DNA from: an uncultured Clostridium sp.
GTDB taxonomy: Bacteria; Bacillota; Clostridia; TANB77; CAG-508
DNA: 48,504 nt
Assembly (NCBI GenBank): GCA_964394545.1
Contig: CAYMXX010000003.1
Location: 7,573-56,076, forward strand
Direction of reading: 5' to 3'
Both the position numbers and the translations under genes were made by a program. This document shows, piece by piece, positions 29,562 through 34,762 of the stretch. Under the pieces are notes generated by a model. The model searched no databases. It was not told the origin of the DNA and saw only the letters and a list, made by a program, of their open reading frames with translations. Position 1 is the first letter of the stretch. Each line of letters opens with the position of its first letter.

Positions 29562-29620
29562 TCACGTTTTTTTGCAAGTAAACATAAGATATATATATAC
29601 GCTATAAAGGAGGAATAAAA

Positions 29621-29974
29621 ATGTATAGAAATTATACACAGTGTAGAGCTTGTGGCTGTAATAATATGATGAACAATAATAATCAAGATTTAATTGATGA
29701 TACTTGTAATTATATACAAAACACTATGGCTTTACATGAAGATAATTGCGAATGTGGATTTGATGAAGAAGATAATTTGTTTCCAACAAATCCAATGTTT
29801 GCACAAAGCTATGTACCATGGCAAACTATGGATAAAACATTTATGCCATGTGTTGGACTTAAAATGGGAACAATTTTTCCTGAACTTGTAAGTCCGTATA
29901 TGCCAGGACAATCAATGGAAGAAATTGAATTTATTAGAAATGCAAATACAATAGGAAAGGGGTGTAACAAATGA
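29621..29974 (+). CDS. cotJA: Spore coat-associated protein CotJA
   Basis: AQSYVPWQ...GLKMGTIFPELVSPY is the CotJA signature, and the gene is first in a cotJABC arrangement. Confidence 0.75.
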   Translation: MYRNYTQCRACGCNNMMNNNNQDLIDDTCNYIQNTMALHEDNCECGFDEEDNLFPTNPMFAQSYVPWQTMDKTFMPCVGLKMGTIFPELVSPYMPGQSMEEIEFIRNANTIGKGCNK

Positions 29975-30279
29975 TAGACAGTAAAGAATGTCAAACAGAA
30001 GAAAATAGAAATGATTGTGAATGCAATAAAGATATGAGAAGACAAGAAATGATTGATCAAATTAAAAGTTTAGATTTTGCCATAATAGAACTTGGACTAT
30101 ATTTGGATACACACCCAGATGACCAAAGGGCTCTTTGTATGCACAGAGAATATTGTAAACAAGTAAAAGATTTAAAAGACAAATACAAAAAAATGTATGG
30201 GCCATTAACAATTTTTTATCCATGCAACAAATGGAGATGGCTTGAGGAACCATGGCCATGGGAAAGGGGGAATTATTAG
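29971..30279 (+). CDS. cotJB: Spore coat protein CotJB
   Basis: LDFAIIELGLYLDTHPDDQRAL...YGPLT is the CotJB signature. There is an ATGA overlap with cotJA. Confidence 0.8.
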   Translation: MIDSKECQTEENRNDCECNKDMRRQEMIDQIKSLDFAIIELGLYLDTHPDDQRALCMHREYCKQVKDLKDKYKKMYGPLTIFYPCNKWRWLEEPWPWERGNY

Positions 30280-30477
30280 ATGTGGACTTATAATAAAGTA
30301 TTAGAATACCCAATAAATATTAAATGCCCGAATCCTCGTTTAGCAAAGTTTATAATATCTCAATATGGAGGACCAGATGGAGAGCTTGGAGCATCACTTA
30401 GATATTTATCGCAAAGATTTGGAATGCCAGACCAAAAAGCAAAAGCTATATTAAATGATATAGGTACAGAAGAATGA
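30280..30477 (+). CDS. cotJC: cotJC (Mn-catalase-family spore coat protein), 5' segment, truncated by the element insertion
   Basis: The CotJC N-terminus is MWTYNKVLEYP...GELGASLRYLSQRFGMPD...LNDIGTEE, followed by TGA created at the junction (30475-30477). Confidence 0.85.
   Translation: MWTYNKVLEYPINIKCPNPRLAKFIISQYGGPDGELGASLRYLSQRFGMPDQKAKAILNDIGTEE
30463..30475. repeat. Left copy of the 13-bp core direct repeat GGTACAGAAGAAT (attL core)
   Basis: It is identical to 34343-34355. Next to it inside the element is the arm GTACCATGATGTTGTCAAT (30478-30496). Confidence 0.85.
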
Positions 30478-30653
30478 GTACCATGATGTTGTCAATAGTT
30501 AAAGACATAGGTTATTTGTAGTCGGCAAAGCCTTAACAACTAACAAAATTACAACTTTAACTATTGACTGTAAAAATTTACAATTTAAACAGTAGAGAAT
30601 TTGTAGGGGCGACCAGTGGTCGTCCGCCTTACAGAGCCTTGCTAAAATTAATA

Positions 30654-32213
30654 TTAGATTTTAGGTATTTTAGGATATATATGTAATTCAAATTTGGTAG
30701 GGTCTGATTCTTTTTTTATAGCTTTTTCAGTTTTTAAATATGTAACTTTTGCAAGAATACTTTTAAGTAAAATGTTTTTATCTTCAGCAGATTCTAACTT
30801 ATAATATAAATCTATAACATTTTTAAATTTAGGTATCATAATTTCTTTTTGTTGTTTCATTTCATTATTTTTACTTAAAAGTTCAGTATATTCATTTAAT
30901 TTGTTTTCTAAATTTCGAATATTATCTTTTATAGATTTAGAACGATTTATAAATTCATCTTTGTTATAAATACCATTTTCTAAAAAGTCATAGATTTTAT
31001 TAAGTTTAATATTTTCTTTTTCTAATTCTTTTTGTGTAGCTAAAATGGATTTTTCTATTATCTTGTTATTATCTGTACTAGAATTATCTTTTATATTATA
31101 ATTTACTTTGTAATTTTCAAGCCAAATTTTTAATGATTCAATGATTTTATTTTCTACAATATAAAGTTTAGAACTTACATTATCACATTTTGAATTAGAA
31201 CACATAAGTGTAGCAGGTTTATCAGCTTTTGTATAAGGTCGCCTTTGCATAGGTTTGCCACATTTTTCGCAAAATACTAAACCAACTAATGGATTTTGAA
31301 CTATATTGCTATGTTTTACTTTAGGAGCATTTTGTTTTCTTTTTTCTTGTACTAAATTCCAAGTTTTATCATCAATAATTGGATCATGTAATCCATCATA
31401 AATTAAATATTCATTATTACGAGGTCTACTAATTATAAGATGTCCGTTTTTCGTTTTCTTTTTTTGTTTCCTTCTATTCCAAACAATTTTTCCGATATAT
31501 GTAGGATTAGAAAGAATATCTTTAACAGAAGAAATAGTCCATTCATCTGAAATTCTAGGTTTTAAATTAAGAGAATTTAATTGTTTAGCAACCGAATTTA
31601 TAGTATTACTTTCAAAAGAATATAATCTAAAGATTTCTTTTACAATATGTGCTTCATCTTGATTTATTGATAAGCTATAACCTTTAGAATCTTTTAATTT
31701 TACTCTATCATATCCAAATGGAGCAATGTTACCAACAAATTTACCCTCTGAAACAGAAATCTCACGACCTCTTTGTAAACGCCTATTTATTGTTTTATAT
31801 TCTCTTCTAGACATAAATAAGCCAAACTCAAAATATTCTTCATCAAATTCATTATCTGGGTCATATGTTTTAATGGGTGTAATAATTTTGGTATGAGAGT
31901 ATTTAAAAGCTTTTGAAACTCTACCTTGATCAGCAGTATCACCACGAGCAAGTCTTTCTACTTCAACAACTAAGATGCCAGTCCATTTTTCGTTTTCAAC
32001 ATCTTTTAAAAGTTTTTGTATTTCTTTTCTTTCACTAATAGTTTCACCACTTACAACTTCTCTGTAAATTTTACCAATAGTTAAATTTCGTGTTGAAGCT
32101 AGAGTAGTCAAGATTTTTTCATGTCTTGCTAAAGTTTCGCCTTCACCATATTTTTCAGATTCTATATCTTCTCTTGATTTTCTTAAATATATTGCATATG
32201 TGCCATCTTGCAC
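30654..32213 (-). CDS. Large serine recombinase (resolvase/invertase N-terminal domain, recombinase domain, zinc ribbon, coiled coil)
   Basis: YAIYLRKSRED (catalytic Ser region), RLARGD, a Cys4 ribbon (CEKCGKPM...CSNSKCDN) and a C-terminal coiled coil. It starts at GTG after GGAGGAAAT. Confidence 0.9.
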   Translation of the reverse strand: MQDGTYAIYLRKSREDIESEKYGEGETLARHEKILTTLASTRNLTIGKIYREVVSGETISERKEIQKLLKDVENEKWTGILVVEVERLARGDTADQGRVSKAFKYSHTKIITPIKTYDPDNEFDEEYFEFGLFMSRREYKTINRRLQRGREISVSEGKFVGNIAPFGYDRVKLKDSKGYSLSINQDEAHIVKEIFRLYSFESNTINSVAKQLNSLNLKPRISDEWTISSVKDILSNPTYIGKIVWNRRKQKKKTKNGHLIISRPRNNEYLIYDGLHDPIIDDKTWNLVQEKRKQNAPKVKHSNIVQNPLVGLVFCEKCGKPMQRRPYTKADKPATLMCSNSKCDNVSSKLYIVENKIIESLKIWLENYKVNYNIKDNSSTDNNKIIEKSILATQKELEKENIKLNKIYDFLENGIYNKDEFINRSKSIKDNIRNLENKLNEYTELLSKNNEMKQQKEIMIPKFKNVIDLYYKLESAEDKNILLKSILAKVTYLKTEKAIKKESDPTKFELHIYPKIPKI

Positions 32214-32254
32214 ATTTCCTCCTTTCCTTGTAATTTGTCTTTAACTTGCTAAAA

Positions 32255-32413
32255 TTATATATATAAATTCGACAAATTACAATGATAAGATTTATTTATT
32301 AAATTAATTATGATGTTATCTATATATTCTTTTTGAATAGTAATATTTTCTACTATGAAATCATCATAAAACTTTATTTTTGTATTTTCTAATGTGTATT
32401 CTTCTAATATCAT
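32255..32413 (-). CDS. Small hypothetical protein (52 aa) upstream of, and co-oriented with, the recombinase; possible directionality/accessory factor
   Basis: The ORF MILEEYTLENTKIKFYDDFIVENITIQKEYIDNII... follows an RBS-like TGAGGCG. No family was recognised. Confidence 0.35.
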   Translation of the reverse strand: MILEEYTLENTKIKFYDDFIVENITIQKEYIDNIIINLINKSYHCNLSNLYI

Positions 32414-32448
32414 ATAAATCGCCTCATTTAACTTTATGAGAAAAGAAT

Positions 32449-32533
32449 AAAAAAATACCCAAGACTGGCTTGTCTTGAGCAAATTCACAATTCTCTATGC
32501 TAACATTATATGATGGGCGACTTATAAAATCAA
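32449..32533 (-). promoter_or_regulatory. SigA-like promoter followed by a leader terminator hairpin ahead of the small ORF and recombinase genes
   Basis: On the minus strand: TTGATT (32533-32528), a 17-nt spacer, TATAAT (32510-32505). The hairpin CTCAAGAC-AAGCCA-GTCTTGGG and a T-run (32479-32449) then lie upstream of ATG 32413. Confidence 0.45.
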
Positions 32534-32646
32534 TTCCCATTTATTTCCCTTTTTTCTAAAAATGTTGTAATCTAATAAATTTTAATATAAAATATAATCA
32601 AATTGAAAAGAGTAGTATGTTTGTTTTTGAAAGGAGGTAAAAGTAA

Positions 32647-32970
32647 ATGAACAAAAAGAATAAAATATTAAATGTAATTTTTATAATTCTAAATGGCATT
32701 ATTATTTATTTTATATCAAGTAATCGATGGGTAAATAGAATGCCTGGTCCAGGAGTAGATTATTCTTTAGTTGAAGATTTTTATGCTTTATTTTTAGGAC
32801 GTGGACTTCCAACGGTGATAACTGCATTAATAACAGCAATAATATCTTTTTTAGTAAATAAAGTTATTATAAAACAAGATTTAAAAGTAAAAAATTATAT
32901 TATTCTGTTCTTTATAATACTAATTGTAAATATCATTGTTTATAGAACAGGTATAGGAGTTGCCGTATAA
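32647..32970 (+). CDS. Small membrane protein (three predicted TM helices), element cargo
   Basis: A 107-aa ORF after an AGGAGGT RBS, with hydrophobic segments ILNVIFIILNGIIIYFI, LPTVITALITAIISFLV and YIILFFIILIVNIIVY. No family was recognised. Confidence 0.5.
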   Translation: MNKKNKILNVIFIILNGIIIYFISSNRWVNRMPGPGVDYSLVEDFYALFLGRGLPTVITALITAIISFLVNKVIIKQDLKVKNYIILFFIILIVNIIVYRTGIGVAV

Positions 32971-32985
32971 ATCTTTGTAACAATT

Positions 32986-33068
32986 ATAATGTGCCTTATA
33001 AATTTTTTTCAAGGTTAAATTGAATGTGCTATAGCACAACCTTGAAAAAAATTTTAAAAGCACATTAT
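32986..33068. terminator. Nested 83-bp palindrome; a bidirectional terminator-like structure
   Basis: The outer arms are ataatgtgc / gcacattat and the inner arms are tttttttcaaggtt / aaccttgaaaaaaa (33004-33051). The central palindrome is gtgctatagcac. Confidence 0.55.
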
Positions 33069-33253
33069 TTTTCATTTAAGAGGATTTAAGGATAAGTATG
33101 TGTAAAGTATACATAAACAATGTTTTGTTAGAGTGAACTTGGGTGAACTCTAAAGGCAGGATAGTGATGATTAACATATCACATATACACGTAGAAGGAC
33201 AAGCCTTCTAGAGTTAATAAAAGAACAAAAATTTTATGCAAAAGTGATGCGGA

Positions 33254-33407
33254 AATTCACCGAATGAACTACTAAAAAATGTCTATTAGAGTGCGAAAGT
33301 TCACTAAATGAACTCAAAATTTACTATTTTTAGGTAAAAGTTCACCGAGTGAACTAAATTAAATTCACTTAGTGAATAACAAATTTAATAAGTTCACTTA
33401 GTGTACT
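33254..33407. repeat. Five copies of a 17-bp palindrome, consensus AGTTCAC-N3-GTGAACT
   Basis: The copies lie at 33254-33270, 33298-33314, 33339-33355 (a perfect AGTTCACCGAGTGAACT), 33362-33378 and 33391-33407. A related GTGAAC-N4-GTGAAC lies at 33133-33148. Confidence 0.8.
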
Positions 33408-33436
33408 TAGAATTTATGAAAATTTGGCACAAAGTA

Positions 33437-33465
33437 TTGATTTTGTAAATAAAATAAAGTATAAT
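33437..33465 (+). promoter_or_regulatory. Consensus SigA promoter of the toxI-like RNA / toxN cassette
   Basis: TTGATT (33437-33442), a 17-nt spacer, then TATAAT (33460-33465). Confidence 0.6.
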
Positions 33466-33496
33466 GAATATACTAATATTGATAAATTAATTTATC

Positions 33497-33692
33497 AAAT
33501 AAACTAGGTTGCACAAGCCTTTGATTAATTTCATAAACAAGTGCAAATTTAAACATTAGGTTAGATATGAGCCTTTAGGATGCGAATCCTATAAACGAAT
33601 ATCCTATTGAACATTAGGTTAGAAACGAGCCTTTAGGTTACTATAAATGAGTTTCCAAAAAAATTATGGGGGTACTTAAAAAAGTATCCCCT
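33497..33692 (+). ncRNA. Candidate type III antitoxin RNA (ToxI/antiQ-like): about 2.7 imperfect tandem repeats, then a terminator hairpin
   Basis: ACATTAGGTTAGA(T/A)A(T/C)GAGCCTTTAGG occurs at 33553 and 33611 (58-nt period), with a degenerate copy (ACTAGGTTGCACAAGCCTTTGA) at about 33502. The hairpin gggggtac/gtatcccc (33668-33691) lies just before toxN. Confidence 0.6.
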
Positions 33693-33715
33693 ATATTTAT
33701 AATACGGAGGAATAA

Positions 33716-34246
33716 ATGAAGGATACAAAGAAAATAAAATTAGGAAAATTAAATTTTTATATTATAGATGATAATTATATTAAATATTTAAGTCAATTTG
33801 ATAAACATATTGCTTATAATAAAAATGAAAAAAGACCATATATAGGAGTTGTAATTATTGTTGAAGAGCATTATTATTTCGCACCTTTATTTTCGCCAAA
33901 ACAAAAACATAAAACATATAAAGATAATTTAACTTTTTTCAAAATTATAAATACTAAAACAAAAAATGATTTAGGTATAATTAGATTTTCTGATATGATA
34001 CCAGTACCACAAGAAAGTGTTTATTTATTAGATATAAAAAGTAAAAGTTATGGATATAAAAGACTACTTTCAGAACAATATTCTTACATAAATAAGCCTG
34101 AAAATAAAGCAAAAATTATGGAAAAAGCAGAAAAGATTTATAGTATAGTTACTAAAAATAGTAAAAGTAAGATGGCTAAATTTTATAAAGATTTAAGTTG
34201 TGATTTTAAATTGTTAGAAGAAAAAAGTGCTGAATATAAAGTTTAA
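33716..34246 (+). CDS. toxN: ToxN/AbiQ-family type III toxin (endoribonuclease)
   Basis: FYIIDDNYIKYLSQFD...RPYIGVVIIVEEHYYFAPLFSPKQKH...GIIRFSDMIPVP...YKRLLSEQYSYI...CDFKLLEEKSAEY parallels lactococcal AbiQ (FYTISSKYIEYLKEFD...YLAPLTSPK...CNFSLLEEK). Confidence 0.8.
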   Translation: MKDTKKIKLGKLNFYIIDDNYIKYLSQFDKHIAYNKNEKRPYIGVVIIVEEHYYFAPLFSPKQKHKTYKDNLTFFKIINTKTKNDLGIIRFSDMIPVPQESVYLLDIKSKSYGYKRLLSEQYSYINKPENKAKIMEKAEKIYSIVTKNSKSKMAKFYKDLSCDFKLLEEKSAEYKV

Positions 34247-34255
34247 TAAATAAAA

Positions 34256-34291
34256 AGTTCACTAAGTGTACTTTAGTTCACCCGGTGAACT
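34256..34291. repeat. Two more copies of the 17-bp palindrome; the second doubles as the toxN terminator
   Basis: AGTTCACTAAGTGTACT (34256-34272) and a perfect AGTTCACCCGGTGAACT (34275-34291) followed by TTTTT. Confidence 0.75.
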
Positions 34292-34342
34292 TTTTTAATT
34301 TTACAGCCAATAGTCATAATTTTTTATAATTGACAACATGGT

Positions 34343-34762
34343 GGTACAGAAGAATTAGCCCATTTAGAAATGGTAGGAACATTGGTTCATCAATTAACAG
34401 ATGGATGCAGTTCAGATGAATTAGCAAAAGCAGGTCTTGGAGCATATTATACAGATCATGGTTGGGGAGTATACCCACAATCAGCAGCAGGAGTTCCTTT
34501 TGACGCAAATGCTTTAGCAGTAAAAGGTGATCCGATTGCAGATTTACAAGAGGATTTAGCAGCCGAACAAAAAGCACGAGCAACATATGAAAAATTAATT
34601 GATTTATGCAAAGATGACCAAGATGTATTAGATGTACTTCGATTTTTAAGAGAAAGAGAAGTAGTGCATTTCCAAAGATTTGGAGAAGCATTAAGAGGAG
34701 TACAAGATAAACTTGCAGAAAGAAAATTTTATATGAATAAAAATATGAAATGTGAGCAATAA
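34343..34762 (+). CDS. cotJC: cotJC 3' segment, beginning at the right core repeat
   Basis: GTEELAHLEMVGTLVHQLTDG...DLQEDLAAEQKARATYEKL...REVVHFQRFGEAL shows Mn-catalase/CotJC conserved motifs. It is in frame with the 5' segment once 3,880 bp are removed. Confidence 0.85.
   Translation, partial: GTEELAHLEMVGTLVHQLTDGCSSDELAKAGLGAYYTDHGWGVYPQSAAGVPFDANALAVKGDPIADLQEDLAAEQKARATYEKLIDLCKDDQDVLDVLRFLREREVVHFQRFGEALRGVQDKLAERKFYMNKNMKCEQ

Follow-up and report, generated by a model that had tools for sequence, protein, structure and literature searches.

A 3.88-kb large-serine-recombinase element splits the sporulation gene cotJC in an uncultured Clostridium and may rebuild it by excision

Introduction

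Can a spore-coat gene that has been cut in two by a recombinase-encoding element still yield its protein? This question is raised by cotJC, the third and last gene of a cotJA-cotJB-cotJC operon in a 48,504-nucleotide stretch of DNA from an uncultured gut Clostridium sp. (GenBank assembly GCA_964394545.1, contig CAYMXX010000003.1; the whole stretch is called the window below), where a 3,880-bp insert follows codon 65 and breaks the gene. An initial annotation, made from the sequence letters, took the insert for a skin-like intervening element. We find that the insert shares with the sporulation-gene intervening elements skin, SPbeta, vfbin, gin and yin the structural features of that class, namely a split mother-cell gene, a core sequence set in inverted arms, a recombinase of its own and an excision that restores the reading frame, here in silico. 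Our best reading, to which we assign a probability of roughly 0.55, is that a small recombination directionality factor (RDF) triggers an excision that rebuilds cotJC, most plausibly in the sporulating mother cell.

As cited in a preprint (bioRxiv 10.1101/2021.11.22.469490), Abe et al. (2013, Mol Microbiol 90:415) recorded cotJC as a frequent integration target in spore-formers. We found no characterization of a cotJC-splitting element in the literature that we searched. What is new here is an unusually compact element of the sporulation-gene intervening kind; cotJC as an integration target was known.

Removal of the insert in silico restores cotJC

The 5' segment of cotJC (30280..30477, + strand; identified from the list of open reading frames [ORFs] and Pfam Mn_catalase) runs for 65 codons, ends in ...LNDIGTEE and is then closed by a TGA that the junction itself creates. 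The gene resumes 3,880 bp further on with the 3' segment (34355..34762, +; 135 codons and a stop), which restarts at 34355 with LAHLEMVGTL... This split had been described in the initial annotation and was confirmed, and cotJA (29621-29974, +; Pfam CotJA, 1.1e-13) and cotJB (29971-30279, +; Pfam CotJB, 1.3e-27) lie intact directly upstream. The same 13-bp core, GGTACAGAAGAAT, stands at both junctions as a direct repeat with a spacing of 3,880 bp and exactly two copies in the window, one at 30463..30475 (attL core, +) and the other at 34343-34355, compared to a chance expectation of 0.05 matches with one mismatch or fewer.

Inside the cores, the element carries inverted 19-bp arms that agree at 17 of 19 positions (2 matches in the window compared to 0.00 expected), also as first described. 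The left inner arm, an attP-type half-site (ATTGACAACATCATGGTAC; 30478..30496, -), is conserved and covaries across species with the right inner arm (34329-34347, +), which together with its core makes up attR (34329..34355, +). The attP reconstructed from these ends (GACAACATGGTGGTACAGAAGAATGAGTACCATGATG) is near-palindromic, as had been anticipated, with 18 of 25 positions pairing. Its centre lies inside the core, between core positions 10 and 11, and this symmetry places the predicted crossover dinucleotide GA at 30472-30473. Further inward, outside the ~50-bp attachment (att) sites, is a pair of subterminal inverted repeats, CTATTGACTGTAAAA on the left (30561..30575, +) and CTATTGGCTGTAAAA on the right (34299..34313, -), with 2 matches in the window compared to 0.05 expected. 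This repeat (CTATTGRCTGTAAAA) is found inside both ends in most family members described below.

Deletion of one core copy and everything between the cores yielded an open, in-frame CotJC of 200 amino acids (aa), which bears out the predicted in-frame gene. Pfam Mn_catalase was matched by both halves, at profile positions 1-66 (5') and 73-197 (3'), and the rebuilt protein shares 99% identity, end to end, with P0001, an intact protein of 199 aa from another sample. The initial annotation had also proposed that related strains should be searched for an empty site, and such a site was found in a close relative whose DNA is ~97% identical (L001), where cotJC reads through GATATTGGTACAGAAGAATTAGCCCAT without interruption. 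Compared to the predicted attB, AATGATATAGGTACAGAAGAATTAGCCCATTTAG, the empty site of L001 differs by one synonymous A/T change just 5' of the core and is otherwise equal.

Related records are mostly metagenome-assembled, and a split gene of this sort could arise if a mobile-element contig had been joined into cotJC by faulty assembly. This explanation was refuted, and we give it practically no weight. Three public contigs from different sequencing runs (L041, L042 and L043) show the integrated structure at 99.98-100% identity, which implies that the split is not an assembly chimera, and the same architecture recurs in ~20 species. One of these contigs, L042, is a 4,020-bp Logan contig from SRR14160769 that corresponds to window positions 30446-34465. 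It ends exactly 30 nt (k-1, with k = 31) outside the last attL-specific base, as a branch of the assembly graph at the crossover would give. This break could reflect an empty-site allele within the same sample, and the clue is ambiguous because the other contig end has no such break.

The cotJ operon has a sigK-type promoter

A sigK-type promoter, AC-N17-CATAAGATA (29564..29591, +; regular-expression scan), has a terminator hairpin on one side and the ribosome-binding site of cotJA on the other. It is one of only five strict matches in the window to the consensus used, that of C. difficile (PMC3789822), and is the only strict match near the locus. This arrangement suggests that the cotJ operon depends on sigK in this organism, as does the cotJB2-cotD operon of C. 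difficile. An endospore-forming host is further supported by a SpoIIM homologue elsewhere in the window (46885-47544; Pfam, 1e-23).

The element encodes an SprA-like large serine recombinase

The 519-aa serine recombinase that had been noted at the left end of the element (30654..32213, -; GTG start) matches Pfam Resolvase, Recombinase and Zn_ribbon_recom at residues 7-158, 186-295 and 308-361. With a nucleophilic Ser in the resolvase domain and a C-terminal coiled coil, the predicted protein has the full domain set of a large serine recombinase. Its closest solved relative is SPbeta SprA/YokA (9dxh; E 4e-50 over residues 9-510); the alignment places the catalytic-serine motif YLRKSRED opposite YLRRSRQD of SprA and continues through the coiled coil as far as residue 510. 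When B. subtilis sporulates, it is SprA that restores spsM (PMC5499854, PMC4191935). This match to SprA, together with a small ORF that adjoins the recombinase as an RDF would, shows the skin-like analogy drawn earlier to be apt.

The att sites are also of the kind that such an enzyme uses. The rebuilt attP is symmetric about the GA within the core, as is required of a ~50-bp attP with a non-palindromic central dinucleotide. Moreover, an inward shift of 5 bp gives the best agreement between the distal motif of attP and the attB half-sites (4.57/10, compared to 1.8-3.4 at other shifts), a modest signal that appears to fit the rule for large serine integrases. The promoter scan placed a sigma-A-like promoter for the recombinase, TTGTAA-17-TATAAT, at 32254..32282 (-), and this promoter is kept in a 10-locus alignment. 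It lies inside a conserved palindrome, TTGTAATTTGTC...GACAAATTACAA, of whose upstream arm the -35 hexamer is part.

A small ORF behind a terminator is a candidate RDF gene

Read from high to low coordinates on the minus strand, the recombinase is preceded by a promoter (P1), a ~45-nt leader with a terminator, a small ORF, and then the palindrome with the second promoter. The small ORF (32255..32413, -; 52 aa, with a ribosome-binding site and ATG) stands directly upstream of the recombinase in all cases, and a 45-aa gene is called there in independent contigs. Across loci, it encodes 45-54 aa of acidic protein with the conserved core MLLEEYTLENTKIKFYDDYIVEN..QKEYIDNVIINLI, and none of its 182 protein clusters is annotated. 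Its size is comparable to that of the RDFs GirX (6.5 kDa), SprB (58 aa) and CD1234 (72 aa). From its position, size and conservation, we consider the product a candidate RDF. An AlphaFold2 model of medium confidence (predicted local distance difference test score [pLDDT], 69) shows a beta-hairpin and one helix. Candidate family assignments for the small protein were rejected: Pfam matches were below threshold and attributable to chance, PADLOC gave none, and PDB sequence matches were at chance level.

P1 (32505..32533, -) is a sigma-A-like promoter, TTGATT-17-TATAAT, upstream of the leader terminator. The terminator (32456..32481, -) is intrinsic, with a 10-bp stem followed by T7 and a fold z score of -3.8. 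The leader hairpin occurs in two sequence versions in two groups of loci, and its position and the T-run are kept in both. This arrangement suggests that the candidate RDF is under attenuation control, not under the control of a sporulation sigma factor. A search of the window for an antisense target of the leader RNA returned noise only.

The cargo is a ToxIN module flanked by palindromes

The element (30476-34355) has only four ORFs, which encode the recombinase, the small protein, a membrane protein and ToxN. Phage structural, lysis, replication and transfer genes were absent from these ORFs, none of which contained a relaxase domain in Pfam. Thus, the description of a very small element that carries defence cargo and is no prophage held up, and the cargo was identified as ToxIN/AbiQ. 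The toxin gene toxN/abiQ (33716..34246, +; 176 aa) matches Pfam ToxN_toxin (4.9e-41), PADLOC AbiQ (2e-45) and the ToxN structure 4ato (2.6e-22). Upstream of it is a toxI-like antitoxin RNA locus (33437..33691, +) that consists of a promoter (33437-33465), two copies of AACATTAGGTTAGAWAYGAGCCTTTAGG at a 58-nt spacing (33549-33579 and 33607-33637) and a terminator (33668-33691). This predicted tandem-repeat RNA, the intervening terminator and the ToxN-family toxin make up a complete type III ToxIN/AbiQ module, with the same promoter-repeat RNA-terminator-toxin layout as known ToxIN/AbiQ and CptIN systems. The toxI-like locus is 85% conserved in four toxIN modules and has one hairpin with compensatory changes. 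In all, it comprises about two full repeats and one degenerate copy with a ~58-nt period. ToxI repeats elsewhere are 36 nt long. The repeats were not called by Tandem Repeats Finder because the copies diverge after ~31 nt.

The remaining cargo ORF (32647..32970, +; ORF list) encodes a predicted 107-aa membrane protein, belongs to the variable part of the element and had no significant Pfam or PADLOC match. It is followed by a ~270-nt conserved non-coding block with several hairpins (32985..33255, +; alignments), which has homologues in L003, L004 and L007, is common to elements with different cargo, and shows 7 base pairs with compensatory changes among 4 sequences. Rfam scans of the element and three related loci assigned no known family to toxI, the leader or this block.

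Upstream of the cassette is an array of five 15-bp palindromes, RTTCACnnnRTGWAY (33256..33407, no strand), which within the window occur inside the element only. A pair lies downstream (34257..34291, +), and its second member (34275-34291), which precedes a T run, serves as the toxN terminator. The palindromes also flank unrelated cargo (toxIN, cptIN and rhuM) in other elements and were seen in L003, L004, L007, L019 and L020; in the empty-site relative L001, a similar pair (~650-700) directly follows the stop codon of cotJC. The palindromes may mark cassette boundaries or serve as operators or as an oriT.

Related elements occupy the same cotJC codon across Clostridia

A scan of species-representative genomes recovered 21 loci with recombinases 75-92% identical, in metagenome-assembled genomes of uncultured Clostridia and Clostridium sampled from mouse, rabbit and other sources. 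At every locus that shows the halves, cotJC breaks off at residue 65 and takes up again at residue 66, and ~20 species share this insertion codon. We conclude that these elements form a family in which an SprA-like recombinase takes the conserved stretch of cotJC around the core (codons G62-T-E-E-L66) as attB. The elements are 3.3-7.5 kb long and have constant parts, which are the att arms, subterminal repeats, recombinase, small ORF and promoter-terminator leader. The arms change with the recombinase lineage, both together, and read TTGACAAC, TTGTTATC or TTGATAAC. Such elements are common: no recombinase cluster among the best 120 falls below 86% identity, and one small-ORF variant was present on 534 contigs.

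The cargo differs in almost every species and is often of a defence type. In sister elements, the slot holds ToxIN; CptIN; RhuM (PADLOC candidate system PDC-S05); a GNAT protein with an EamA transporter; a radical-SAM protein with weak similarity to viperin; a PAPS-reductase/DndC-like protein with ParB; a PBECR2 nuclease; or TetR with a flavin reductase. In L003 and L004, a CptN-family type III toxin (PDB 4rmo, 1.2e-18) with two ~50-nt RNA repeats occupies the slot; Pfam and PADLOC both missed it. The ToxIN and CptIN modules share the same promoter and the same flanking palindromes, and the presence of CptIN in the slot of toxIN implies that two type III toxin-antitoxin families have been exchanged as cassettes.

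Other recombinases have used the operon as well. Paenibacillus lacisoli and Muricoprocola aceti have more distant enzymes (44-46% identity) at this cotJC codon. In L019 (locus ~9800-9900; element ~3300-3400) two elements stand in tandem in cotJC with an attP-like junction of right arm, core and left arm, the left element having a fragmented recombinase. In L003, L004 and L021, cotJB is split at ...CNKWRWLEEPW|PWERGNY* (for example at ~10280-16390 of L004) by an unrelated large-serine-recombinase element with its own inverted arms, whose recombinase is ~24% identical to that in cotJC. Since both cotJB and cotJC are targets, the cotJ operon can be interrupted twice. The cotJB element of L004 carries a toxIN module.

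Both cotJC and the recombinase are maintained

Eight interrupted cotJC alleles could be joined into frames without a premature stop, and their pairwise ratios of nonsynonymous to synonymous substitutions (dN/dS) were 0.06-0.2 at synonymous divergences (dS) of 0.6-1.9. The recombinase had no stop codons in 15 species, with a median dN/dS of 0.13 at a median dS of 0.60. The low dN/dS and open frames imply that both genes are maintained.

These values bear on whether the element is a fixed remnant that has lost excision and left cotJC a pseudogene in this strain. Decay of that kind is seen at some family loci: L016 has a frameshift in the 5' part of cotJC, the 3' parts in L003 and L005 are truncated, and L019 and L033 have fragmented recombinases. 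Excised circles were also not found: a degenerate attP pattern had 0 matches in JGI metagenome contigs and IMG/VR viral contigs, assemblies of a kind that seldom captures rare circles. By contrast, the window holds the recombinase, small ORF, att arms and cotJC halves all in intact form, and across species purifying selection acts on the recombinase. Given that no part is damaged here, we consider a dead remnant very unlikely.

Excision during sporulation is the best reading of the locus

We propose that the recombinase is made from its own sigma-A-like promoter and, acting alone, would only integrate the element (attP x attB), and that the 45-54-aa protein encoded just upstream would be its directionality factor. 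The leader terminator would normally block expression of the small protein. Production of this protein, most plausibly in the sporulating mother cell, would lead to attL x attR recombination at the central GA, release of the 3.88-kb circle and reconstitution of an in-frame cotJC, so that the sigK-type cotJ promoter could yield CotJC for the spore coat. Excision would come early enough for sigK-driven cotJ expression, and the element would be retained in the forespore chromosome. Placement of the event in the mother cell follows the analogy with known elements. ToxIN would provide abortive-infection defence to the host and could also act as an addiction module against loss of the excised circle in vegetative cells, where a labile antitoxin RNA would mean that cells losing the circle are penalized.

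The same locus could instead hold an integrative or mobilisable element that is specific to its target and plays no part in development, for which cotJC is a safe harbour that is silent in growth and dispensable. Sporadic excision through read-through of the leader terminator would then serve transfer or loss, and carriers would lack CotJC or use a paralogue. We take this to be a real possibility, although it probably does not hold. Horizontal spread is suggested by recombinases ~90% identical between hosts whose CotJB proteins are only ~45% identical. Close relatives differ in whether the site is filled or empty, which, with the attP-like tandem junction of L019, is also a sign of mobility on our own reading. 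Tandem and nested arrays occur, and selfish or defence islands typically carry cargo of this sort. In C. botulinum, moreover, the yin element was excised at all time points (PMC10747680).

Several further results count against a developmental excision. The initial annotation had called for a search for SigE/SigK promoters upstream of the recombinase genes; the promoter scan found no sigE- or sigK-type promoter within the element upstream of either the small ORF or the recombinase. Since the conserved promoters are only sigma-A-like, excision might not be developmental. A CATAAAT/G motif between the terminator and the ribosome-binding site of the small ORF has no -35 element and is not shared by the second group of loci, and the SpoIIID consensus WWRRACARNY was not enriched (63 matches compared to 72 expected), an uninformative outcome. 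The small ORF had no detectable sequence similarity to known RDFs, including GirX, SprB and CD1234; in a Foldseek search with its model, SprB chains (9dxd) ranked first without significance (E 5.8; template-modelling score [TM], 0.34). The recombinase dS is about half that of the host cotJC. Part of the purifying selection on cotJC may predate the insertions, and we therefore do not count its dN/dS as proof of reconstitution. A second intact cotJC is possible elsewhere in the genome, of which the 48.5-kb window was covered, and cotJC paralogues occur in many Clostridia, as in C. difficile (cotCB and cotD). In B. subtilis, cotJC is dispensable for spore formation. The failure to find the attP circle belongs on this side too.

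Two candidate signals were set aside. Four relaxed sigE matches in the element occurred at the background rate, were badly placed and were not conserved. In a co-divergence test, recombinase identity correlated moderately with the identity of host CotJB/CotJC (rho ~0.48), a value that fails to separate vertical from horizontal inheritance. From this moderate correlation and the halved recombinase dS, we conclude that the elements have probably also moved between species.

Against an element without a developmental role stand four points. All characterized large-serine-recombinase elements that split a mother-cell gene excise in sporulation (PMC5595907, PMC4191935, PMC5025042). In most of the occupied species, the two cotJC halves keep open frames and evolve under purifying selection. 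One codon of a sporulation gene has been reached by at least three recombinase lineages, and cotJB by a fourth family, which fits a link to sporulation better than a safe harbour chosen arbitrarily. Finally, the element ORFs include no relaxase or transfer gene, as reported above. On this evidence, we retain excision in the sporulating mother cell as the preferred reading.

The element resembles gin in kind and SPbeta in recombinase homology

The closest relative in kind is gin, a non-prophage element with defence cargo that is ~7 times larger; by homology, it is SPbeta through SprA. In Bacillus cereus ATCC10987, gin splits gerE and encodes GirC and GirX (PMC5595907). Like the cotJC element, it splits a small mother-cell gene, and it combines a large serine recombinase with a ~6.5-kDa RDF, where the cotJC element has a recombinase of the same type and a candidate RDF. 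The overlap within the inverted att arms is 9 bp in gin and 13 bp here, and the defence cargo is restriction-modification in gin and ToxIN here. The target genes differ, and gin has 28.6 kb, 31 genes and three recombinases compared to 3.88 kb and four ORFs. In addition, girC and girX transcripts are sporulation-specific, whereas the only recognizable promoters in the cotJC element are sigma-A-like, joined by a leader terminator.

The logic that we propose is that of SPbeta in spsM of B. subtilis, where the integrase SprA is always present and SprB triggers excision in the mother cell, rebuilding a spore-envelope gene. SPbeta, however, is a 134-kb active phage, and SprB is a helix-loop-helix protein to which the predicted beta-hairpin and helix of the small protein show no significant similarity.

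Among clostridial systems, the C. difficile skin element has its CD1231 recombinase expressed from a constitutive sigma-A promoter flanked by inverted repeats, and its small RDF, CD1234, is controlled separately by a mapped sigE promoter and a SpoIIID box (PMC5025042). The sigma-A-like recombinase promoter and separately gated small factor of the cotJC element mirror this design. The candidate RDF differs from that of C. difficile skin in standing behind a sigma-A-like promoter and a terminator, and that skin is a 19-gene prophage-like element in a regulatory gene, sigK, whereas the cotJC element lies in a structural coat gene.

The clostridial transposons Tn4451/Tn4453 are ~6 kb long, use the large serine recombinase TnpX, form a circular intermediate and carry accessory cargo; they also encode the Mob protein TnpZ, contain an oriT and have loosely defined insertion sites. 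By contrast, the cotJC element is without a relaxase and has a single, precisely conserved target in cotJC.

A minimal backbone with exchangeable cargo

If excision is confirmed, these 3.3-5 kb elements would be by far the smallest sporulation-gene intervening elements, compared to 28.6 kb for gin. The skin elements measure 14-48 kb and SPbeta 134 kb. Each would be essentially a minimal unit of att sites, an integrase, a ~45-aa factor and one cargo slot. Confirmed excision would also make the family a compact natural system in which to study RDF timing, and would give genome engineering an SprA-like integrase/RDF pair that is new, orthogonal and served by defined 50-bp sites. Gut metagenomes contain these elements in abundance, and the cotJ operon is a hotspot for several recombinase lineages. 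Inside a coat gene, spore-formers can evidently carry defence and toxin-antitoxin cassettes along in their germ line. A clade-wide minimal backbone at one codon, exchangeable defence cassettes, a second family in cotJB and a terminator-gated candidate RDF set the locus above a routine integration.

A broader reading would join these features in one domesticated miniature chassis, and we think it doubtful that all four of its parts hold together. First, the att arms, subterminal repeats, recombinase, small RDF and leader switch would be kept at one cotJC codon throughout a clade of gut Clostridia. Second, palindrome-bounded cassettes (ToxIN, CptIN, RhuM/PDC-S05, viperin-like radical SAM, DndC-like/ParB and others) would be swapped behind a shared promoter region, which would make a coat gene a heritable docking site for exchangeable defence genes. 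Third, with a second recombinase family in cotJB of some genomes, two excisions would gate one sigK-dependent operon. Fourth, excision would be governed by relief of termination and not by a promoter for a sporulation sigma factor.

A further candidate defence locus lies outside the element. At 23526-24476, at the edge of a capsule/exopolysaccharide cluster, the window encodes a 176-aa protein with a SocA/Panacea antitoxin domain and a 114-aa partner, which are probably another toxin-antitoxin or defence pair.

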